Below, piece after piece: positions 439-60,264 of a stretch of DNA of 64,000 bases. This DNA comes from a bacterium. GTDB lineage: Bacteria > SAR324 > NAC60-12. Location of the stretch: the NCBI GenBank assembly GCA_965205865.1, contig CBDBHR010000023.1, forward strand, positions 32,001 through 96,000. Direction: 5' to 3'. A model generated the notes under the pieces. It worked only from the letters and a program-made list of their open reading frames with translations, was not told where the DNA came from and did not search any database. A program made the translations under genes and the position numbers. Position 1 is the first letter of the stretch, and every line of letters starts with the position of its first letter.

Positions 439-2175
439 CAGGCTGTTGCAGATTTTTTTGCCTGCATAACGGGTCATACAATCAGTGAGAACGGGGTATG
501 ATCCCAATTCTCATCATAATGATGAAATGGTTTTTGATCTTTAAAATTGTTAGAATCATATAAACCTTTGCGTATGAAGCGTAGAGAAAGCGAATCAATC
601 GAATCACCTCAAGGAGGCGATAGAGAATATTGAGGTTGTGAGCAATGGCCATGAGCATAAATTCGCCTTTGACTTGTCTCTGCCCTCGAAATCGAAATGA
701 GGTAAAACCGAGATTGGCCTTCAAGTTGCCGAAGACCGGTTCGACGGTACTCATGCGCGTTTTGAGTCGTTGTTTGGCTTCTGGGGTTTGCAATTTATTG
801 CGCATGGCTTCGGCGTAGGGCTCGCGCTCTTGGCGATGGATCTGTTTGAGTCGCGAGCGATTCTTCGGGGGCAGACACCGCTGAGCGAGGGGACAATCTT
901 CACAGGATGGGGCCTGATAGGTGCTCCCTTGGGCCTGGCCCCGCTTGAAGTTACGCTGAAAGGAGAGCTGTTGCCCATTGGGACACTGATAGACATCATT
1001 TTTTGCATCGAAGAAAAAATCAGAACGTTCGAGCTTTCGATCGTTTTGCAGTAATTCTTCCAGGGGGGTCGGCTGGAGAGGGTTGGCTCTATTTTGCGGT
1101 TGCGGGTCGGCAATGACGGCATCAATCTGATGCTGCTCGATATAGTTGAGTTGCTCAAAACTATGATAACCGGCATCCATATTATAACGACGTTGCCGAT
1201 CTTCGGGAAGGTGGGTTTCTGCCTGTTGATGCATCGGCGCAAATTGTTGGGTATCGTTGGCTTCGCAGACCACCTCAGCGGCCACAATCAGATGAGTGGC
1301 ACGATCGACGGCTGCCTGCACATTATAACCGGGTGTGTTAATCGAGGGCATCATGCGTGCGTCGGCATCGGTCAGATTGATCTTATGGCCATCCCGATGT
1401 TCGGGTTTGAGGGTTTGCTGACGCGCTTGAAGATCTTGCTGAGATTGGAGAATCGTTGCTTCGAATTGCTCAAGACGGGCTTTTTCGCCACGAAGGGCGG
1501 CTAAGTCTTCTTCATCGCCTTGATGATCTTCAGACTCGCAATTTAGAGGGGAGGCGATCGATTGACGCGTTTTTTCTAAAAGACGTTCTAATTGTTCTGC
1601 ATTTTTCGAGCGTTTCTTACTGGCAGAGGTTTTCAGCTTCGAACCGTCAAGGTTTATTTCAGCGAAACCGGAGACCTGCTGATCAATGGCCATTTGAATC
1701 AATTGCTCAAAATAGAAGGGCAGGCGTTGCAAATGACGACGACGGAACCGGCTCAAGGCACAGTGGTCGGGGGTCAGATGCGCTGAAACATAGATATAAC
1801 AAAGATCGCGTTTACAAAGTTTCTCCAAAACACGACTACTCTCAATGCCTTCACTGTAGGCATAAAACCAGGTCGCTAACAGAATCGCCGGATCATAGGC
1901 ATCCCCCCCTTGCGATTTGTAGGAGCCATAAAGCGAGGATAAATCCAAGCGGGAAACGAAATCTACCACAAAACGGCATTTATCGTTATCCGGGATCAAG
2001 TGGTTCAAATCGGTGGTGGATAATTGGAGGGTGGAACGATCATTACTCAGAAAACCCATAATAGAAATCCATTTTTACTATGGTTATATGAAAAGTGGAC
2101 TCAAACCAGATACTAGACTATGAAAAGTGTAGCAAAATCCACCTGGAAAAAGCAAATAAAATCTGCAACAGCCTG
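439..2175 (-). mobile_element. IS1182-family insertion sequence
   Basis: Terminal IRs caggctgttgcagatttt (439-) and aaaatctgcaacagcctg (-2175); 4-bp TTTC duplication on both flanks; encloses a DDE transposase. Confidence 0.9.
482..2059 (-). CDS. IS1182-family transposase
   Basis: 525 aa; DUF772-like N-terminus (AYDPAILL..YAYSEGIESSR), LDGSK, GYNVQ, DAGY, YQCP zinc region, VEPVFGNLK. Confidence 0.9.
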   Translation of the reverse strand: MGFLSNDRSTLQLSTTDLNHLIPDNDKCRFVVDFVSRLDLSSLYGSYKSQGGDAYDPAILLATWFYAYSEGIESSRVLEKLCKRDLCYIYVSAHLTPDHCALSRFRRRHLQRLPFYFEQLIQMAIDQQVSGFAEINLDGSKLKTSASKKRSKNAEQLERLLEKTRQSIASPLNCESEDHQGDEEDLAALRGEKARLEQFEATILQSQQDLQARQQTLKPEHRDGHKINLTDADARMMPSINTPGYNVQAAVDRATHLIVAAEVVCEANDTQQFAPMHQQAETHLPEDRQRRYNMDAGYHSFEQLNYIEQHQIDAVIADPQPQNRANPLQPTPLEELLQNDRKLERSDFFFDAKNDVYQCPNGQQLSFQRNFKRGQAQGSTYQAPSCEDCPLAQRCLPPKNRSRLKQIHRQEREPYAEAMRNKLQTPEAKQRLKTRMSTVEPVFGNLKANLGFTSFRFRGQRQVKGEFMLMAIAHNLNILYRLLEVIRLIRFLYASYAKVYMILTILKIKNHFIIMMRIGIIPRSH

Positions 2176-2526
2176 TTTCGCGGGAATGACATAGAGAGTA
2201 TGTACGGACTTTCGCCGCAGTGTACTGGGTAGATGTGATTTTCTATTTTTGTCATTCCTGGAGATCCCGGACTTGATCCGATTTTTAACTACTCAGAAAA
2301 CCCATAATAGAAATCCATTTTTACTATGGTTATATGAAAAGTGGACTCAAACCAGATACTAGACTATGAAAAGTGTAGCAAAATCCACCTGGAAAAAGCA
2401 AATAAAATCTGCAACAGCCTGTTTCGCGGGAATGACATAGAGAGTATGTACGGACTTTCGCCGCAGTGTACTGGGTAGATGTGATTTTCTATTTTTGTCA
2501 TTCCTGGAGATCCCGGACTTGATCCG
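2044..2526. repeat. 237-bp near-tandem direct duplication containing the IS1182 end
   Basis: 2044-2280 repeated at 2290-2526 with a 9-bp spacer. Confidence 0.9.
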
Positions 2527-2652: not shown

Positions 2653-3333
2653 ATGGCGAATGGAAAGATAAAAACAGCAGTGATTACCGGCGTGCATCCG
2701 CACGATGTGGTGGGCTTCCAGTCCATGCTTCGCTCCCTTCCCGAAATCGAGGCCTACCCTCAGAACATGTGGGACTTCATTACGAACCCGGCGCGCGGTC
2801 CAGGGACCTACGAGGTACTACTGTTCTACAACATGCACCAACGTACGCCTGCTGAAGAAGATGGCAAATTCGAGGCCGCCATGAAGGAGACGCTGGAGGG
2901 CCTTGGCGATGGGGACCAGGGGATATTTCTGCTGCATCACGCGCTGGTAGCCTTTCCCGACTGGTCGCTATGGAGAGAGCTTAGCGGCATGCCTCAGCGA
3001 GGGGGGAACCACCCGTGTGCCTTTGACCAGACCGTGCGCATCGACGTCGCGGACACCGAACACCCCATCACTACCACACTGGAGCCGTGGAAAATCGTCG
3101 ACGAGACCTATATCAGAGACGATGCGGACGAGGATAGCCACATCCTGCTCACCACCGATCATCCCCAGAGTATGAAGACGATCGCGTGGACGCGGACCTT
3201 CGGTAAGGCGAGGGTCTTCTGCTATCAGAACGGGCACGATAACCAGGCCTACTCAAACCCCGGTTTTCGAACGGTAGTGGGGCGGGGCATCCAGTGGTTA
3301 GCGGGGAGACAAACTACCATCAATCATCAATAA
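2653..3333 (+). CDS. ThuA-domain (class I glutamine amidotransferase-like) protein
   Basis: HPIT..., DETY, AWTRTFGKARVFCYQNGHD, RGIQWLAG; SD ggag upstream. Confidence 0.8.
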   Translation: MANGKIKTAVITGVHPHDVVGFQSMLRSLPEIEAYPQNMWDFITNPARGPGTYEVLLFYNMHQRTPAEEDGKFEAAMKETLEGLGDGDQGIFLLHHALVAFPDWSLWRELSGMPQRGGNHPCAFDQTVRIDVADTEHPITTTLEPWKIVDETYIRDDADEDSHILLTTDHPQSMKTIAWTRTFGKARVFCYQNGHDNQAYSNPGFRTVVGRGIQWLAGRQTTINHQ

Positions 3334-3414
3334 AAGAGGGAAACCGTGAGGCTGAAAGACAAGGTCGCTTTTATCAGCGGGGGAACCATTTAACTGAATT
3401 CTTAGGAGCTATTC

Positions 3415-4491
3415 ATGCCAATATTAACGAAAAATCAGATTGTCCGTATAACCGATGTGATGTTGCAGGCGGGAGGAGCCTCGGCCGGCCACGCTGGTAT
3501 CGTGGCGGACCACCTGGCCCATGCCAATCTTGCGGGATACGATTCCCATGGGTTCCTTCGCATCCCCCAGTACCTGAAAGAAATTGAGGAAGGCGTTGTC
3601 GATCCAAAGGCAGAGCCAGAAGTCGTTGGCAACCATGGGGCGATCCTCCAGATCGATGGCCATGCTACCTTCGGACAGGTGGTTGCCACACGAGCGACCG
3701 AAATGGCGATCGAGCAGGCTCGTGATCATGGAGTCAGCTTGGTGACGATGGGAAACCATACCAATACGGGTCGAATCGGAACCTACCCCGCAATGGCAGC
3801 AGCGGCTGGCATGGCTGCTATCTTTTTCACGGGCTGGGCGGGTAGACCGGTCGCCACCGTGGCTCCCTTTGGAGGACGCGAGGCCCGACTAGCGACGAAC
3901 CCTTTAGCGATGGCATTTCCTCATGCCGAAGGCGCCCCTATCCTGCTTGATTTTTCCAGCTCCATGACGGCTGATGGGACGCTACGGTTATACCGTAACC
4001 AGGAACAGGAGCTTCCTGATACTTGGATCATTGATAAGCAAGGGGTTCCCAGTAGGAACCCGAACGATTTCTTCGATGGGGGTGCGCACTTACCCGTCGG
4101 CGGGATGCAAGGGGGCCACAAGGGATACGCGCTCTCGGTCATGATCGCGCTTTTCGGGGGACTTCTTGGCCAGATCGCTTTGCCTCCAGGAAAGATTGAT
4201 TTTTGGGGAGGATCCACGATACTCGTCATCGACCTGGGCCGCATGGCGCCCCTGGAAACCATCCGGGCCGAGGTCCAACAGATGATGAGATACCTTCAAA
4301 ATACCCCCCTGATGGAAGGATCGAGCGGGGTTTTCTTTCCGGGGGAAAGATCCGCCAATACTCGCCAAGAGCGATTGGCCCTGGGCATCCCTGTGGATCC
4401 CACCACTTGGGGTCAGGTAGAAGTCCTCTTCGACCAATACGGGGTCCGTGACCAATTGGCCGATGTCCTTCCCTCCGGAGGAAATCCGTAG
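3415..4491 (+). CDS. Ldh_2-family (malate/L-lactate/sulfolactate dehydrogenase-like) oxidoreductase, copy 1
   Basis: ANLAGYDSHG, DGHATFGQ, TNPLA, GGHKGYAL, FPGE motifs. Confidence 0.9.
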   Translation: MPILTKNQIVRITDVMLQAGGASAGHAGIVADHLAHANLAGYDSHGFLRIPQYLKEIEEGVVDPKAEPEVVGNHGAILQIDGHATFGQVVATRATEMAIEQARDHGVSLVTMGNHTNTGRIGTYPAMAAAAGMAAIFFTGWAGRPVATVAPFGGREARLATNPLAMAFPHAEGAPILLDFSSSMTADGTLRLYRNQEQELPDTWIIDKQGVPSRNPNDFFDGGAHLPVGGMQGGHKGYALSVMIALFGGLLGQIALPPGKIDFWGGSTILVIDLGRMAPLETIRAEVQQMMRYLQNTPLMEGSSGVFFPGERSANTRQERLALGIPVDPTTWGQVEVLFDQYGVRDQLADVLPSGGNP

Positions 4492-4601
4492 AATGGCCCT
4501 ATTGATCCAATTAACCGCTTTATAGAGTCACCAGATGAGATTTGATCTAAACACCTTAGCACTTTCAGAAATTGCTAGCGCCCTACGTTAAGGAGAAAGT
4601 G

Positions 4602-5579
4602 ATGGACCCACTGGAATTGGTCGAGATTGGAAATACGGGGCTCAAAGTAAAACGGCTGGGGACCGGCTGTGGACCGTTGGGTCGATTTGTTACCGACGAC
4701 GAGGCCGCCGCAACTCTCAGAAAATGCATCGAACTGGGAGTCAGCTACTTTGACACGGCACCAAGATATGGCGGAGGCGTTAGCGAGCAACGCCTCGGCA
4801 AGGTTCTCTCTGAAATCACACGGTCCAGTTTCACGATTTCCACCAAAGTAGGCAAGTTATTGGAACCAAACCCGCCTGCTCCGGTGGGAGCGGTCATTGG
4901 ACCGAACAGGGAGAACGAGATGCCTTGGATATACGATTACGACACCACCATGCGGGTTTTCGAGGGGAGCCTGAAGCGGCTGAAACTAGACTACGTCGAC
5001 ATCCTTTTGATCCACGACCCGGACAACCATTTCGAGCAGGCGATGGACGGGGCCTATAAGGCCCTTTCAGAGTTGCGTTCCCAACGGGTGATTTCCGCCA
5101 TCGGCGTCGGCATGGGCCAATGGGAAATGTTGGCCCGTTTCGCTCGGGAGGGGGACTTCGATTGCTTCCTACTGGCGGGACAGTACACCCTTCTTGTCCA
5201 TTCGGCGCATTCCGAATTCCTTCCTCTCTGCCAAGAGAAAAAAATAAGCGTAATCATCGGCGCCCCGTACAACAGCGGTATTCTGGCCTCCGACCTGACA
5301 GAGAACGCGACCTTCAACGAACTGCCGGCCTCGGCCAAAGTCTTAGAGCAAGCAAGGCATTGTAAAGCGATCTGTGACCGCCACGGCGTACCGCTCAAGG
5401 CCGCCGCTCTCCAGTTCGTTTTTGGCCATCCCACCGTCGCAGCAGTGATACCAGGCTCGCGGTCTGTATCGGAAGCGGAAGAGAACTTCCAGATGATGGC
5501 ACATCCCATCCCCCCCGCCCTGTGGCAGGAGCTACGCCACGAAGGTCTCATACCTGCCGACGCTCCCACTCCACAATAG
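4602..5579 (+). CDS. Aldo/keto reductase (D-threo-aldose 1-dehydrogenase-like)
   Basis: FDTAPRYG, ISTKVG, LLIHDPD, APYNSGILA, IPGSRS; aaggag SD before ATG 4602. Confidence 0.9.
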   Translation: MDPLELVEIGNTGLKVKRLGTGCGPLGRFVTDDEAAATLRKCIELGVSYFDTAPRYGGGVSEQRLGKVLSEITRSSFTISTKVGKLLEPNPPAPVGAVIGPNRENEMPWIYDYDTTMRVFEGSLKRLKLDYVDILLIHDPDNHFEQAMDGAYKALSELRSQRVISAIGVGMGQWEMLARFAREGDFDCFLLAGQYTLLVHSAHSEFLPLCQEKKISVIIGAPYNSGILASDLTENATFNELPASAKVLEQARHCKAICDRHGVPLKAAALQFVFGHPTVAAVIPGSRSVSEAEENFQMMAHPIPPALWQELRHEGLIPADAPTPQ

Positions 5580-6039
5580 CAATGCGGCTAAGCGGTCGGG
5601 CCGGAGCATCGACGAGATCGATGTCGTAGCGTTAATTCCCTTCGCCGTTAGTGAGAAACGTTCCGTGCAGGAGAAGGCAAAGCAACTCTTGAAGAAGACG
5701 TTGGTCTTCCACACAAGGCTCCTGAAGGATCTGGGCGTGGAAGTCGCGGACGAATCTTCACGGAAGGATCTGGAGTATCAGAACATTGCGCCCACCACGG
5801 ACTATGCGAATGAATTAAACAGGGCCGTCGAACAGCTTCAAGTCCCGGAGGAGGCGCTAGATCGAGGGATCGATGAGATGATGGCGGTGGGATCCCTCCA
5901 GCAATGTCTCGATACTTTCGAGAAGTTCGTGAACTTGGGTGCGACGAACATAAACCCACAACCCCTCATCGCCGATGAGGAGAGTGACGAAATCCTGTCC
6001 AAAGAAATCATTCCTTACTTCAAATCGAGAGGCTCATGA
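5578..6039 (+). pseudogene. 3' fragment of an LLM-class flavin-dependent oxidoreductase
   Basis: Near-identical to 29120-29581; no start region, early in-frame stop. Confidence 0.8.
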
Positions 6040-6334
6040 AAGTTTTGTTAACGGGAGGAACGGGATTCATAGGTGCCAGGTTGGCACGCGCCTTGTTAGA
6101 TAGAGATGTTTTGACGGGGGTTACCGGCGAAGAAGAGGCCATCGATGAGTTGGTGCTCTTTGACTCGGTTGAGGGACCCGGGCTTTCTAAAGATCCGCCA
6201 AGACGCGCCAGGAGCGATTGGCCCAGGGCATCCCGGTGGATCCCACCACTTGGGCTCAGGTAGAAGCCCTCTTCGACCAATATGGGGTCCGTGACCAATT
6301 GGCCGATGTCCTTCCCTCCGGAGGACATTCCTAG
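6036..6334 (+). pseudogene. Chimeric relic: N-terminus of an NAD-dependent epimerase/dehydrogenase joined to the 3' end of an Ldh_2 gene
   Basis: MKVLLTGGTGFIG Rossmann start; 6189-6324 matches the 3' ends of both Ldh_2 copies. Confidence 0.8.
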
Positions 6335-28879: not shown

Positions 28880-29581
28880 GTGCCGATGAAGCTCCTGTGG
28901 GGCTCTTCCATCGACAATCCGGTCAGCTATTCCGGGGAGCACTATCGCCTCGAGGACGCCCATCTCTCTTTGCTGCCGGTCCAGAAGCCCCATCCGCCCA
29001 TCTATATCGGCGCATTCACGTCGACGAATCTGTTCAACATCATTGGCGAGATGTGCCAGGGCTGGCTGTCGGGCAATCCGAATACGGAGGCCTCCTTCAA
29101 GAGAAAGGTCTCCGTGATGAGCAATGCGGCGGAGCGGTCGGGCCGGAGCATCGACGAGATCGATGTTATAGCGCAAATTCCCTTCGCCGTTAGTGAGACA
29201 CGTTCCGTGCGGGAGAAGGCAAAGCAACTCTTGAAGAAGACGTTGGTCTTCCACACAAGGCTCCTGAAGGATCTGGGTGTGGAAGTCGCGGACGGATCTT
29301 CACGGAAGGATCTGGAGTATCAGTACATTACGCCCACCGCGGACTATGCGAATGAATTAAACAGGGCCGTCGAACAGCTTCAAGTCCCGGACGAGGCGCT
29401 CGATCGAGGGATCGATGAGATGATGGCGGTGGGATCCCTCCAGCAATGTCTCGATACTTTCGAGAAGTTCGTGAACTTGGGTGCGACGAACATTCTTGCA
29501 GTTCCCCTCATCGCCGATGAGGAGAGTGACGAAATCCTGTCCAAAAAAATCATCCCTTATTTCAAATCGAGAGGCTCATGA
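28880..29581 (+). pseudogene. LLM-class oxidoreductase lacking its N-terminus
   Basis: YSGEHY, PVQKPHPPIYIGA; N-terminal third absent. Confidence 0.75.
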
Positions 29582-29606
29582 AAGTCATCAATAAAAGAGG
29601 GAAATC

Positions 29607-29918
29607 ATGAGACTGAAAGACAAGGCCGCTTTTATCAGCGGGGGAGCCAGGGGCTTGGGCGCAGCGATGGCCACGCTGTTTGCCAGGGAAGGGATCCGCG
29701 TCAACTGCATAATGCCGGCCAACATCGAAACAATGATGATCGCCCACTTTTTGGAGGAGGAGGAATCTCGACAGGACCTGTTCAACAGTATTCCCCTGGG
29801 CCACGCGGGCCAGCCGGAAGACGTGGCCTACGGCGCCCTTTACCTGGCTTCGAACGAGTCCTCTTTTGTCACCGGCAGCGATTTGGTCATTGACGGTGGA
29901 GCAACCGCAGGGAGGTGA
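29607..29918 (+). pseudogene. SDR oxidoreductase with an in-frame internal deletion
   Basis: ISGGARGLG..AREG joined directly to IRVNCI..; catalytic YxxxK region missing. Confidence 0.85.
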
Positions 29919-29923
29919 TAAAT

Positions 29924-29948
29924 GGTTCCCATGCTTCGCGTGGGAACC
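29924..29948. repeat. Palindromic hairpin (REP-like)
   Basis: ggttcccatgcttcgcgtgggaacc. Confidence 0.5.
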
Positions 29949-29979
29949 CGAGAACAAACTGAATTCCCAGGAGCTATCT

Positions 29980-31065
29980 ATGCCAATATTAACCAAACAT
30001 CAGATTGTCCGTATAACAGATGTGATGTTGCAGGCGGGAGGAGCCCCGGCCGGCCACGCTGGTATCGTGGCGGACCACCTGGCCCATGCCAATCTTGCGG
30101 GATACGATTCCCATGGGTTCATTCGCCTACCCCAGTACCTGAAAGAAATTGAGGAAGGCGTTGTCGATCCAAGGGCAGAGCCGGAAGTCGTTGGCGACCA
30201 TGGGGCGATCCTCCAGGTTGATGGCCATTCTACCTTCGGACAGGTGGTTGCCACGCGAGCGACCGAAATGGCGATCGAGAAGGCTCGTGATCATGGAGTC
30301 AGCTTGGTTAGTATGGGAAACCTGACTCATACGGGTCGAATCGGAACCTACCCTGAAATGGCAGCAGCGGCCGGCCTGGCTGCCATCATGTTTACGGGCT
30401 GGGCGGGAAAACCGTGGGCCCCCCTGGTTCCCTTTGGAGGACGCGAGGGCCGACTCGGTTCGAACCCTTTAGCGATGGCATTTCCTCATGCCGAAGGCGC
30501 CCCGGTTCTGCTTGATATTTCTACCTCGATCACCTCTGAGGGTAAGATACGGGTATACCGTAACAAGGAACAGGAGCTTCCGGATACTTGGATCATTGAT
30601 AAGCATGGGGTCCCCAGTAGGAACCCGAACGATTTCTACGATGGGGGTGCGCAATTTCCCGTCGGTGGCATGCAAGGCGGCTACAAGGGATATGCGCTCT
30701 CGGTAATGATCGCGCTTTTCGGGGGACTTCTTGGCCAGATTGCTGTCCCTCAAGGAAAGACTTATATGGCGGAAATGTGTGAAGGATCCACGATACTCGC
30801 CATCGACATAGGCCGCATGGCGCCCCTGGAAACCATCCGGGCCGAGGTCCAACAGATGATGAGATACCTTCAAGACACCCCCCCGATGGAAGGATCAAGC
30901 GGGGTTTTCTTTCCGGGGGAAAGATCCGCCAATACCCGCCAAGAGCGATTGGCCCAGGGCATCCCTGTAGATCCCACCACTTGGGCTCAGGTAGAAGCCC
31001 TCTTCGACCAATACGGGGTCCGTGACCAATTGGTGAATGTCCTTCTCTCTGGAGGAAATCCTTAG
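29980..31065 (+). CDS. Ldh_2-family oxidoreductase, copy 2
   Basis: Close paralog of 3415-4491 with intact HTGRIG motif. Confidence 0.9.
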   Translation: MPILTKHQIVRITDVMLQAGGAPAGHAGIVADHLAHANLAGYDSHGFIRLPQYLKEIEEGVVDPRAEPEVVGDHGAILQVDGHSTFGQVVATRATEMAIEKARDHGVSLVSMGNLTHTGRIGTYPEMAAAAGLAAIMFTGWAGKPWAPLVPFGGREGRLGSNPLAMAFPHAEGAPVLLDISTSITSEGKIRVYRNKEQELPDTWIIDKHGVPSRNPNDFYDGGAQFPVGGMQGGYKGYALSVMIALFGGLLGQIAVPQGKTYMAEMCEGSTILAIDIGRMAPLETIRAEVQQMMRYLQDTPPMEGSSGVFFPGERSANTRQERLAQGIPVDPTTWAQVEALFDQYGVRDQLVNVLLSGGNP

Positions 31066-31144
31066 AATGGCCATAAGGAATTGTTAGGCGCCCAAGGGGA
31101 TGACTGAGATTCACTCGTTCCACACACTGGTTGGGCTGACTGTC

Positions 31145-34459: not shown

Positions 34460-34675
34460 ACCTGAGTGCGACATAAATCTTCAATAATATGAGTATCCTA
34501 GTGTATATGTCATCCTCGCGAAAGCGGGGATCCGGATTTCAGTCCGGCTGCATACCTCTGGATTCCTGCTCCCTGCTTTCGCAGGGACAAGCTTCGCAGG
34601 AATGACAAGCTTTCTCTAAGATATGAAGATTCTATAACATATTGAATTTATTAAAATCTTATCTCGAACTCAGGT
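34460..34675. mobile_element. MITE (ACCTGAG...CTCAGGT) carrying a GTCAT hairpin doublet
   Basis: IR ends, 7-bp TAAATTA direct repeat on both flanks, inner doublet 34509-34606. Confidence 0.8.
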
Positions 34676-41103: not shown

Positions 41104-41191
41104 CTGCTTTCGCAGGAATGACAAGGTTTCTCTAAGATATGAAGATTCCATAACATATTGAATTTATTAAATTCTTATCACGAACTCAGGT
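41104..41191. mobile_element. Right half of the ACCTGAG-type MITE
   Basis: Near-identical to about 34593-34675. Confidence 0.8.
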
Positions 41192-41398
41192 GAAATTAGC
41201 TTTTCTGACCTCATGGCTGCTATGGGACGAAAAACCTGGGGTTGTAAATATTTCAACTCGCAAAAATCACCCGAACAAAAGTTATTTTCTCAGGACAACA
41301 TAAAATGCTTGATTTATCAGCTACTGGCAGCAGCATAATTCTCAATATATGTCTGAAGTCCGGCATTCAAGGACTATAAAAAAAACATTCCATTCCTT

Positions 41399-54020: not shown

Positions 54021-54449
54021 CGTCCCCTCCTTCTTGCTGTAATCGTTATCGATCTTTACATCACTCCATTCAATAAATTCCCGGCTTTTTTTTATCAGTA
54101 GCGCAGGCGTCTCGCCCACAAGAGAAGGCTGGAGACGGCCCCTCTGCCAAATTCTATGCCGGAGTACTCTTTGGAATGGCGCTTCAAACAATATGAAACT
54201 TTATAAAACACATTTCTTTAGACCGCGTCAAGTTCAAACTTTGAGAAGGAGTAGAATTTGAAGTTGGCGCAATACTTTGCAGTAAGGCTCGTGCCTTCAC
54301 TTTTGATACTTCTGAAAATGTGCTAGCTTTGATTTCAGAGGGAAATTTTAATGTGTTCTTGGCCTGAAGTTGCGGTGTATGGTTCCGCGTTCCGTAATTA
54401 TTCACTGATGTTACGTGCACGGATTTTGCAGTTATGCGTCTCATCGAGT

Positions 54450-54825
54450 TGTCATTCCTGGCGAAGACCAGGAATCCACAGGGCTGGCGATTCAGGTGAC
54501 TAAAACGTTTCATATAAATCTTTCCATTGAGGATTATTTTTCTCAATGAGTTCGATTTTCCAAGCTCGTTTCCATTTCTTGAGTTGTTTTTCTCTCCGGA
54601 GAGCAGCTGTCACCTCTGAAGCGGTCTCATAGTATACCAATTGATGTACTTGGTATTTACTGGTAAATCCTTCTATGAGATTTTTTTTATGTTCATAAAC
54701 TCTTTTAAGAAGATCATTTGTCACTCCAATATATAGAGTGCCATTTCTTTTACTTGCTAAGGTATAAACGTAGTAGGTTTTCATGATGGCGACTCCCGGA
54801 TTCCTGGTCTTCGCCAGGAATGACA
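54450..54825. mobile_element. Candidate REP-bounded GIY-YIG element
   Basis: Perfect 28-bp inverted pair tgtcattcctggcgaagaccaggaatcc (54450-54477) / ggattcctggtcttcgccaggaatgaca (54798-54825) tightly enclosing one gene. Confidence 0.7.
54500..54784 (-). CDS. Stand-alone GIY-YIG nuclease (UPF0213-like, 94 aa)
   Basis: YYVYTLAS..NGTLYIGVT.DL.KRVYEH, REKQLKKWKRAWK, NPQWKDL; gggag SD. Confidence 0.92.
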   Translation of the reverse strand: MKTYYVYTLASKRNGTLYIGVTNDLLKRVYEHKKNLIEGFTSKYQVHQLVYYETASEVTAALRREKQLKKWKRAWKIELIEKNNPQWKDLYETF

Positions 54826-54929
54826 CACTTGTGGGAAGCGTATTCATGGAAACCGCTGAATGCAAAAAATATACACGTAATATGACTTATTCAAAGAGAA
54901 GGCATAACTTTGGACGGTTGAGAGGGATT

Positions 54930-55833: not shown

Positions 55834-57078
55834 ATGAATTCTCCAATCCCTGATGAAATCCCGAAGTACGCGTTCATTGAAGATTTTGATCTCTATGGCA
55901 AAAGAGTTCTCATTCGTGCTGATTTCAATGTGCCTTTGGACGAGGATTTGAATATCCGAGATGCAAGCCGAATCAAAAGCAGCCTGAAAACAATCCGATA
56001 CGCCTTGGAACATGGGGCGAAAGTCATTCTCATGTCGCACTTGGGACGTCCAAAAGGCAAGCGGGTCAAAAAGCTCAGTTTGAATCCGGTAGCAATTGCG
56101 TTGACCCAAATGCTCAAACAGCCGGTCCAATTGATGTCGGACTGTGTGGGCCCTGTTGTCGAAATGAGGATTGATCGCATGCAAATCAGAGAAGTTGTGC
56201 TGCTGGATAATCTGCGTTTTCACAGGGAGGAAACAGACAACACGATATGCTTCGCCCACTCGTTGGCCCGATTGTGTGACATCTATATCAACGATGCCTT
56301 TGGCACTGCTCACCGTGCCCACGCTTCCACTGCAGGGATTACCCGTTTCGCTGACGAATCGGCCATGGGTTATCTTTTACAACAAGAAATCCAGTATCTG
56401 GGCAACATCCTTCACAACCCTTCACAACCCTTTGTTGTCATTCTGGGGGGTGCCAAAGTATCGGATAAAGTGAAAGTTATTAAAAACTTGATGCGTTCCG
56501 TCCGGATTCTGATCATCGGAGGAGGGATGGCCTGTACTTTCTACAAAGCCTTGGGTTACGAAATTGGCGACTCCCTGCTGGAAGAAAAAGCACTGCCGAT
56601 TGCTCATGACATCCTGGAACAGGCAGAGAAGCAAAAGGTACCATTGCTCTTCGCAGAAGATTGCGTGATTGCTGAAAACCTGGAAGAAAACGCAACGACT
56701 GAAATTATCCAGGCATCACAGGGAGTTCCTGCCGGATGGAAAATTCTGGACATTGGTCCCCAGGCAACCCAAACTTTCAGCCAAACCCTGCAACGCGCCA
56801 AAACCATTTTTTGGAACGGACCCATGGGAGTCTTTGAATCAGCGCCCTTCGCCCATGGGACTTTAGGCATTGCCAAAGCCATGGCCGAGGTGACAAAAAA
56901 TGACGCAGTGACCGTCGTTGGAGGCGGCGATTCGGTTGCTGCCATCAAAGAGATGGGATTGGCAGACCAAGTTTCTCATATCTCTACGGGGGGAGGGGCT
57001 TCCTTGGAATTTTTAGAAGGACTACTCTTACCAGGAATTGAAGCCATCCCCAAACGCACCCATAATAAGCTAATTTAA
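55834..57078 (+). CDS. pgk: Phosphoglycerate kinase
   Basis: RADFNVP, SHLGRP, DAFGTAHRAHAS, WNGPMGVFE, STGGGASLE. Confidence 0.98.
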   Translation: MNSPIPDEIPKYAFIEDFDLYGKRVLIRADFNVPLDEDLNIRDASRIKSSLKTIRYALEHGAKVILMSHLGRPKGKRVKKLSLNPVAIALTQMLKQPVQLMSDCVGPVVEMRIDRMQIREVVLLDNLRFHREETDNTICFAHSLARLCDIYINDAFGTAHRAHASTAGITRFADESAMGYLLQQEIQYLGNILHNPSQPFVVILGGAKVSDKVKVIKNLMRSVRILIIGGGMACTFYKALGYEIGDSLLEEKALPIAHDILEQAEKQKVPLLFAEDCVIAENLEENATTEIIQASQGVPAGWKILDIGPQATQTFSQTLQRAKTIFWNGPMGVFESAPFAHGTLGIAKAMAEVTKNDAVTVVGGGDSVAAIKEMGLADQVSHISTGGGASLEFLEGLLLPGIEAIPKRTHNKLI

Positions 57079-57130
57079 CCTGAGTTCGACAACATATTGA
57101 ATTTATTAAATTCTTATCTCGAACTCAGGT
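57078..57130. mobile_element. Minimal 53-bp ACCTGAG-type MITE without REP
   Basis: acctgagttcga / tcgaactcaggt IRs; interior matches the right end of 34460-34675. Confidence 0.8.
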
Positions 57131-59700: not shown

Positions 59701-60264
59701 ATGAAAAAATGTCGGATCTTGCTCTTCGCAGCAAGGATCATTGGGCTGCAGACTCTGCAGGTTTATGGACAACCTACCATTGGATTTACCCAGGAAGATC
59801 GAGAGCGCATCATTCGGTTGGAAACCACCTTGACTCTCTTTAGGGAAGCCAACGATCAGCGTTTTATCGAATTACGGGAAGATATGAACAAACGCTTTGA
59901 ACAGATCGATAAACGCTTTGAACAGATCGATAAACGCTTTGAACAGATCGATAAACGCTTTGAACAGATGATGGATACGTTGCAAATGATTGCCGGTATT
60001 TTTACGGTCCTGACCCTGGGAGTGATCGGATTTGCTTATTGGGATCGACGCAGCATTATTCGTAAAGCAAAAGAAGAGACCCTGGCAACGATTGAACAGG
60101 ATGCCTCCACTAACGACCAAGCGATGATCGATCGGGCGGTTGCTCAGGCTGTCCAAGAAATCAAAAAAGACAATCGTCTGCAAGACTTGATGGCTGCTTT
60201 ACGCAAACTGGCCGCCACCGACCTGCCTCTGGCAAACGTGCTCAAAGAATTTCATTTATTGTAG
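59701..60264 (+). CDS. Coiled-coil membrane-anchored hypothetical protein
   Basis: Signal-like N-terminus, KRFEQID heptads, TM segment, WDRR. Confidence 0.8.
   Translation: MKKCRILLFAARIIGLQTLQVYGQPTIGFTQEDRERIIRLETTLTLFREANDQRFIELREDMNKRFEQIDKRFEQIDKRFEQIDKRFEQMMDTLQMIAGIFTVLTLGVIGFAYWDRRSIIRKAKEETLATIEQDASTNDQAMIDRAVAQAVQEIKKDNRLQDLMAALRKLAATDLPLANVLKEFHLL
59890..59969 (+). repeat. 21-bp tandem repeat (about 3.8 copies)
   Basis: aaacgctttgaacagatcgat units. Confidence 0.95.

Follow-up and report, generated by a model that had tools for sequence, protein, structure and literature searches.

The small GIY-YIG nuclease gene ssn lies in the window (the whole stretch of 64,000 nucleotides of a SAR324 genome analysed here) between two inverted TGTC-tagged hairpins, and the unit that has moved at this locus is larger than the hairpin-gene-hairpin cassette: it extends from 54405 to 54886 and is bounded by ends of the IS701 type (Table 1). 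Very probably, the ssn cassette is the cargo of a MITE of the ISAba11/IS701 type, which a DDE transposase would have moved in trans.

The ssn reading frame (94 codons and a stop, 54784 to 54500 on the minus strand) encodes a protein with a single GIY-YIG domain, matched by the Pfam model over residues 4–77 with 58.1 bits (cut-off 22.6, E 1.1e-15). It is framed by two 28-nt arms that are 100% complementary and separated by 320 nt, so that the perfect inverted arrangement described in an earlier, sequence-only reading of this DNA is evident. Each unit folds into an 8-bp stem with a 6-nt loop; the fold stability of the 51-nt windows is not unusual (z −1.5 and −1.3). The Shine-Dalgarno-like GGAG motif is located 8 nt ahead of the ATG and two bases inward of the upstream unit. 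A promoter scan gave 2 sites against 1.8 expected, and in RNA run X17 the element is covered by short contigs alone. The element has atuA as its left-hand neighbour; to its right come a cytochrome c gene and pgk, and the right target duplication is 39 nt ahead of the cytochrome c start codon.

Ssn proteins are single-domain GIY-YIG proteins of ∼94 aa which carry GTC-tagged hairpins (SRMs) on their flanks and cleave single-stranded DNA within a few nucleotides of the hairpin, on its 5′ side (Chenal et al. 2025, PMC11893778). Like SsnA of Neisseria meningitidis, the protein in the window consists of 94 residues forming one GIY-YIG domain, with an SRM on both sides of its gene and conserved Tyr, Tyr and Glu residues. 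Its identity to the N. gonorrhoeae orthologue, which lies within an NTS cluster, is 61.6% over 86 of the 94 residues, a value within the strict rule for Ssn homology of at least 60% identity over at least 75% of the length (PMC11893778). Residues Y7, Y18, R28 and E65 are invariant in 120/120 of the homologues listed. Y7, Y18 and E65 align with the Neisseria protein and, judging from a spacing that suggests an offset of one, would be equivalent to Y6, Y17 and E64 of the Ssn paper. Among 8000 scored candidate homologues (51–165 aa) 7770 reach E≤1e-20; a PDB sequence search with the ssn protein gave 0 matches, and the search for viral homologues gave three weak 20-aa matches alone, which were set aside.

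The published degenerate SRM pattern fits both units, and the gene is thus flanked on both sides, as are 42% of the Ssn homologues (PMC11893778). As judged by sequence, the 94-aa gene and its TGTC-tagged hairpins are the published Ssn/SRM module. The earlier suggestion that the nuclease and the hairpins belong together therefore agrees with a pairing published in 2025, and the suggestion that the nuclease acts at the hairpins is in keeping with the cutting of hairpin-bearing single strands described for its relatives (PMC11893778). By analogy with these relatives, the protein most likely binds the flanking SRM hairpin as single-stranded DNA and would cleave it a few nucleotides to the 5′ side of the GTC tag. 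In the host genome (G000) the SRM pattern occurs 140 times, compared with ∼25 occurrences expected from three 1-Mb first-order Markov simulations. The association with tagged hairpins that the sequence-only reading anticipated for homologous genes is also found in another phylum: at 28 homologue loci (30 fetched, two left out for short flanks), an SRM lies within 250 nt in 20 cases and on both sides in 12.

Homology between the window element and other genomic copies ends 45 and 61 nt past the hairpins, at inverted repeats that start with CTGATGTTAC and GTCATGTTAC. Direct repeats of 7–8 bp, TTATTCA in the window, surround 8 of 13 end pairings, and the remaining five lack a target duplication; a looser genome-wide scan returned the same eight duplication-flanked pairs together with one unrelated pair. 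The empty site between atuA and the cytochrome gene is present in run X10, where one contig of 1844 nt (depth 18.9) joins 54397 to 54887 and skips 489 bp; the joint is ambiguous over 7 bases. The skipped length corresponds to one element plus one copy of the duplication. The site is occupied in run X5, in which a contig passes from the left flank into the arm, and in a genome of the same genus (G001) the atuA-cytochrome order is kept and the element is absent. Mobility, as proposed earlier, is thus borne out by the target duplications and the empty site, with a joint that falls outside the hairpins. The 482-bp element contains no transposase and is present in multiple dispersed copies, features of a non-autonomous element.

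Table 1. Features of the ssn-bearing element (window positions) and group II intron loci (host-genome contigs).
Feature	Position	Strand	Basis
7-bp target-site duplication, left copy, TTATTCA	54398..54404	+	flanking repeats; joint of the empty site ambiguous over 7 bases
482-bp non-autonomous element, ISAba11/IS701-type ends around the SRM-ssn-SRM cassette	54405..54886	.	pieces at 24 loci; 489-bp empty site; ends common with IS701-family elements
Terminal inverted repeat (TIR) downstream of gene, begins CTGATGTTAC	54405..54430	+	23/26 bases as in the end of IS701 transposase locus L063
Rest of 45-bp arm, TIR to hairpin	54431..54449	+	kept in other copies
SRM / CGTC-type REP hairpin downstream of gene	54450..54477	+	complementarity, SRM pattern, fold
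Spacer, hairpin to stop codon	54478..54499	+	retained in gene-less derivatives
ssn gene, 94-aa single-domain GIY-YIG nuclease, intact, Y7 Y18 R28 E65	54500..54784	-	Pfam match and alignment
Shine-Dalgarno-like GGAG motif (putative function)	54793..54796	-	sequence
SRM / CGTC-type REP hairpin upstream of gene	54798..54825	-	complementarity, SRM pattern, fold
Inner part of 61-bp arm upstream of gene	54826..54860	-	kept in other copies
Terminal inverted repeat upstream of gene, GTCATATTAC in the window, GTCATGTTAC in the majority of copies	54861..54886	-	18/26 bases fit the other end
7-bp target-site duplication, right copy	54887..54893	+	flanking repeats, empty site
Group II intron loci	G000:C23:187328-188242, C23:120929-121742, C29:587335-588492, C28:322040, C30:745928, C3:76712		

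The ends of the element are shared with complete insertion sequences of the IS701 family. At a metagenome locus (L063), located with a degenerate end pattern, such an end comes after a transposase that scores 273 bits on the NCBIfam IS701 model NF049921 (cut-off 250); it is identical to the window end at 23 of 26 bases and to the end of another genomic copy at 25 of 26. Complete elements with these ends (L064, L065, L071-L074) occur in two genomes of the same family (G031 and G008) and on four plasmids, where one copy is annotated 'group ISAba11 transposase' and another (L074) has a 7-bp target duplication. The named records that share these ends bear SAR324 or Deltaproteobacteria in their titles. 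The exact left-end pattern has 0 matches in the genome contigs and the degenerate pattern has 10 there, 1 in metagenomes and 0 in viral contigs. Two genomes of the same family (G008 and G016) carry MITEs of 183–217 bp that have the same ends and unrelated contents, and in G001 the single hairpin-gene-hairpin cassette, 85% identical, lacks IS701-type ends; shell and cargo are therefore separable. A decayed ssn cassette together with a second doublet is found between degenerate IS701-type ends in another genus (L003:1246-1790, G010:C18). Its arms differ from those of the window element, its duplication matches at 6 of 7 positions, and each end is within 5–6 mismatches of a family end, compared with 0 of 300,000 random positions at up to 7 mismatches. 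A search for the outer TIR gave 1 weak match in the 28 homologue loci and 1 in 60 random stretches, which, with a recovery of 2 clear and 1 weak of 8 G000 copies and with L003 missed, is weak evidence that the shell may be lineage-specific.

Some observations count against the preferred reading, in which the cassette travels as MITE cargo. In G000, which is 91.9% complete, an intact ISAba11-type transposase was not found, either at 1e-10 or above the family cut-off, and the best trace is a 28-aa remnant (E 0.007). In addition to the five pairings without duplication, the duplication of the window element is 7 bp long, or 5 bp when the terminal A/T is assigned to the element, and differs from the published lengths, which are 4 bp in classical IS701 (PMC2266710) and 6 bp in a single insertion of ISAba11 (PMC7519801).

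The ISAba11-type TIRs are themselves targets of insertion. An IS110-family element (Pfam DEDD; G000:C23:185654-187269 and G000:C28:49460-51072) and its 88-bp miniatures (e.g. G000:C3:28221-28306) are inserted at one position inside the TIR, and 11 of 13 matches of the IS110-family left-end pattern are preceded by an ISAba11-type TIR or by the junction of the IS110-family element itself; the remaining two appear unrelated. This resembles IS4321/IS5075, which reportedly target Tn21 ends. The recurrence of 88-bp modules at GTTAC had made an integron- or dif-like site-specific cassette array a candidate, which was rejected: the module is the IS110-family miniature, and a target duplication surrounds the outer unit. 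A lone ISAba11-type end at G000:C3:99655 (-) precedes a pair of hairpins of the GTAG type.

Pieces of the element of at least 45 nt are present at 24 loci of G000; 11 span the whole gene and two consist of both arms without the gene. All of the gene-spanning copies (11/11) carry at least one arm. Twelve aligned gene copies are 88–98% identical, and six of these retain the 94-aa frame. The changes among them (11 synonymous, 35 non-synonymous) give a pN/pS of 0.78 with one replaced segment masked and 0.85 unmasked, and neutrality is not rejected (p 0.46); the comparison with G001, whose close orthologue has an early stop, gives 0.25 (p 1e-4). Three loci share a frameshift near codon 19–20, in identical or similar form, and gene conversion could account for the sharing. 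This decay fits copying without need of the gene, with the nuclease as a passenger that is not needed in cis. By itself, near-neutral decay does not discriminate, because copies of an autonomous element are expected to decay too. Both G000 and G001 possess, intact and in syntenic position, a second ssn gene (57% identical) that has hairpins of its own and could supply any host function. In genomes of another phylum matches were obtained in 53 of 251, with a maximum of 3 per genome in assemblies whose fragmentation may collapse repeats, and the ssn copy number in G000 looks unusual.

One of the two gene-less copies joins both hairpin sides at a short shared motif, and the other, 185 bp long, has a separate target duplication; in addition, a contig of run X3 skips the gene. 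Deletion derivatives of the unit, as postulated by the sequence-only reading, thus do exist in the genome, but the four doublets of the window that it had named as such lack the element arms and are not among them. The hairpins and flanks of the cassette also recur in mosaic tandem arrays with units of 16, 23, 44, 50 and 51 nt (G000:C28:58339-58751, C30:58200-59821 and C30:64144-66201). The array junctions lie 4 to ∼20 nt 5′ of the tag and show microhomology, and a fixed cut-site offset was not seen at them. At G000:C24:181416 a transposase gene, which we take to be IS256-like, is inserted directly after the GTCA tag of the upstream hairpin of one copy.

The four window doublets are indeed head-to-head GTCAT...ATGAC pairs, so that the likeness in layout to the ssn unit holds to this extent, but their stems differ from the ssn-flanking unit, and the one at 34508 alone matches the strict SRM pattern. 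The pair at 379-2190 is one short doublet that is split by a 1.74-kb IS in the hairpin loop. This IS (window 439-2175), which is presumably IS1182-like, is a recent insertion with a 4-bp duplication and 7 near-identical full copies in the genome, and most of its other copies are also located in SRM loops. A 237-bp perfect tandem duplication (window 2044-2280 / 2290-2526) comprises the end of this IS and its flank. Other repeats in the window are four 21-nt tandem repeats within a gene for a DUF16-like coiled-coil protein (59878-59982) and long duplicated segments that are 92–99% identical (3324-6334 and 29120-31075; 31620 and 61476).

The doublet at 34508 forms the centre, or cargo, of a second MITE family of ∼214 bp with 37–38 copies, represented in the window at 34460-34675, 41109-41198 and 57078-57130. 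These elements have ACC(T/C)GAGTTCGA ends around an SRM doublet, with 6–7-bp duplications in 24 of 36 pairs and 131 matches of the end pattern in the genome. When the flanks of all 109 head-to-head doublets in the genome were clustered, a count which starts from doublets and hence covers doublet-bearing repeats, both flanks were repeated in 85 cases, one flank in 13 and neither in 11. The largest flank families have 37, 15 and 12 members, and the ends and duplications of the large families differ, being of TA-, GGCACC- and CTAG-type (3, 9 and 3 examples). Doublets are central to at least five unrelated repeat families in G000, which requires repeated entry. These data show that hitchhiking inside several MITE-like shells is a major route for CGTC-type REPs in this genome. 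A group II intron (Rfam RF00029; Table 1) is located at the same TGTC-tag position of SRM hairpins at 5/5 of the 5′ junctions, with 5/5 of the 3′ junctions continuing in CA, and looks like an intron that targets SRMs.

The element combines properties of several known systems. With MITEs of the ISAba11 group of the IS701 family it shares ends of the form CT(G/C)ATGTTAC that are common with complete elements, a short AT-rich duplication and the lack of a transposase. Gene-carrying MITEs that are mobilised in trans have been described (PMC7519801, PMC2266710, PMC9330008, PMC10969869), but in the element studied here the cargo is a nuclease accompanied by its own target hairpins, and the length of the duplication differs from the 4 and 6 bp noted above. 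Like the CGTC-tagged REPs of Di Nocera et al. (2013, PMC3733652), the hairpins have a TGTC tag, an 8-bp stem and a short tail and form head-to-head dimers. According to that account CGTC REPs have no dedicated transposase, and most are not tied to other repeats, with a few families inside longer palindromes, whereas 85 of the 109 dimers in G000 have both flanks repeated. REPtrons of the REP-RAYT type (PMC3733652) similarly have a small enzyme gene between inverted tagged hairpins. Unlike in REPtrons, the gene in the window gives matches of the GIY-YIG type only, with no HUH tyrosine transposase, and the hairpins do not delimit the mobile unit. The Ssn layout has been likened to that of an IS, movement not being shown, and the main text of the Ssn paper contains no MITE, paralog or target-site term (PMC11893778), whereas 11 gene-spanning copies within IS ends and duplications are present in the host studied here. 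The amplification of an ssn gene as MITE cargo, and with it a hitchhiking route for CGTC-type REPs, is new; no description of ssn amplified as IS701-type MITE cargo was found in the literature searched, to which subscription papers and the Ssn supplements, both outside the search, may add in ways that bear on novelty.

The events that led to the present arrangement may be pictured as follows. The hairpin-gene-hairpin cassette would have come between two ends of an ISAba11/IS701-family IS, replacing the transposase gene. A DDE transposase, whose nature is suggested by the shared ends, would then have copied the 482-bp unit in trans into AT-rich 7-bp targets. The copies then decay, and deletions between short repeats remove the gene from them; they also give rise to tandem hairpin arrays and gather other elements.

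An alternative which must be considered, although it appears unlikely, divides the process into two tiers: Ssn and host repair would mobilise SRM doublets or the ssn cassette itself into IS interiors, or delete between them, and the DDE shells would only amplify the products. It would account for the repeated entry of doublets into at least five unrelated repeat families, for the second decayed cassette in G010 with its IS701-type ends and different arms, for the cassette without arms in G001 and for the tandem arrays made from cassette ends. However, no hairpin-bounded empty site was found (the G001 cassette locus had no alignable counterpart in G000), and the array junctions show no single fixed offset from the tag. 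Moreover, GIY-YIG nucleases hydrolyse DNA, and to our knowledge they have no strand-joining step. Ssn cutting could trigger the entry of doublets or cassettes into unrelated shells, in line with the IS-like layout remarked on in the Ssn paper (PMC11893778). That Ssn cleavage at SRM hairpins itself puts doublets, and at times also an entire ssn cassette, inside ISs of many families and thereby removes their transposase genes is quite unlikely; if true, Ssn would be a MITE maker, CGTC-type REPs would spread in two tiers, from nuclease-triggered entry to amplification by unrelated transposases, and it would be answered why these REPs have no dedicated transposase.

It is improbable that the amplification itself was selected, with extra ssn copies strengthening the restriction of single-stranded DNA, directed against transforming DNA or hairpin-bearing elements, and with the MITE as a vehicle. 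SsnA lowers the transformation of NTS-bearing DNA in Neisseria (PMC11893778), SRMs are present in many mobile elements of the host genome, and the gene was under purifying selection between genomes. Nevertheless, half of the aligned copies are broken and the variation among them is near neutral, the close orthologue in G001 is interrupted by its early stop, and each of the two genomes retains the resident second ssn gene intact and in synteny. Very improbable, and at the window locus largely refuted by the 489-bp empty site, is the sequence-only reading's autonomous element, in which the hairpin-gene-hairpin unit at 54450-54825 moves by itself and the window doublets are its deletion products: the layout, the gene-less derivatives elsewhere and the SRMs on both sides of 12 of the 28 homologue loci agree with it, but boundaries, duplication and empty site all lie outside the hairpins and coincide with IS701-family ends, every gene-spanning copy retains at least one arm, and the stems and flanks of the window doublets are different.

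The transposition of the ssn cassette as MITE cargo bears on a point left open in the Ssn paper, the mobility of SRM-ssn-SRM units (PMC11893778): in one lineage, the cassette has moved within borrowed IS ends, with a base-exact empty site. The presence or absence of an ssn cassette should consequently not be taken as proof that Ssn is a transposase. The 482-bp element provides another natural Ssn/SRM pair and a small, defined substrate with which both models of mobility can be tested. For the question left open in the CGTC-REP paper of what spreads these repeats (PMC3733652), one lineage now offers an answer, in that most of the doublets in its genome reside in other repeated shells.
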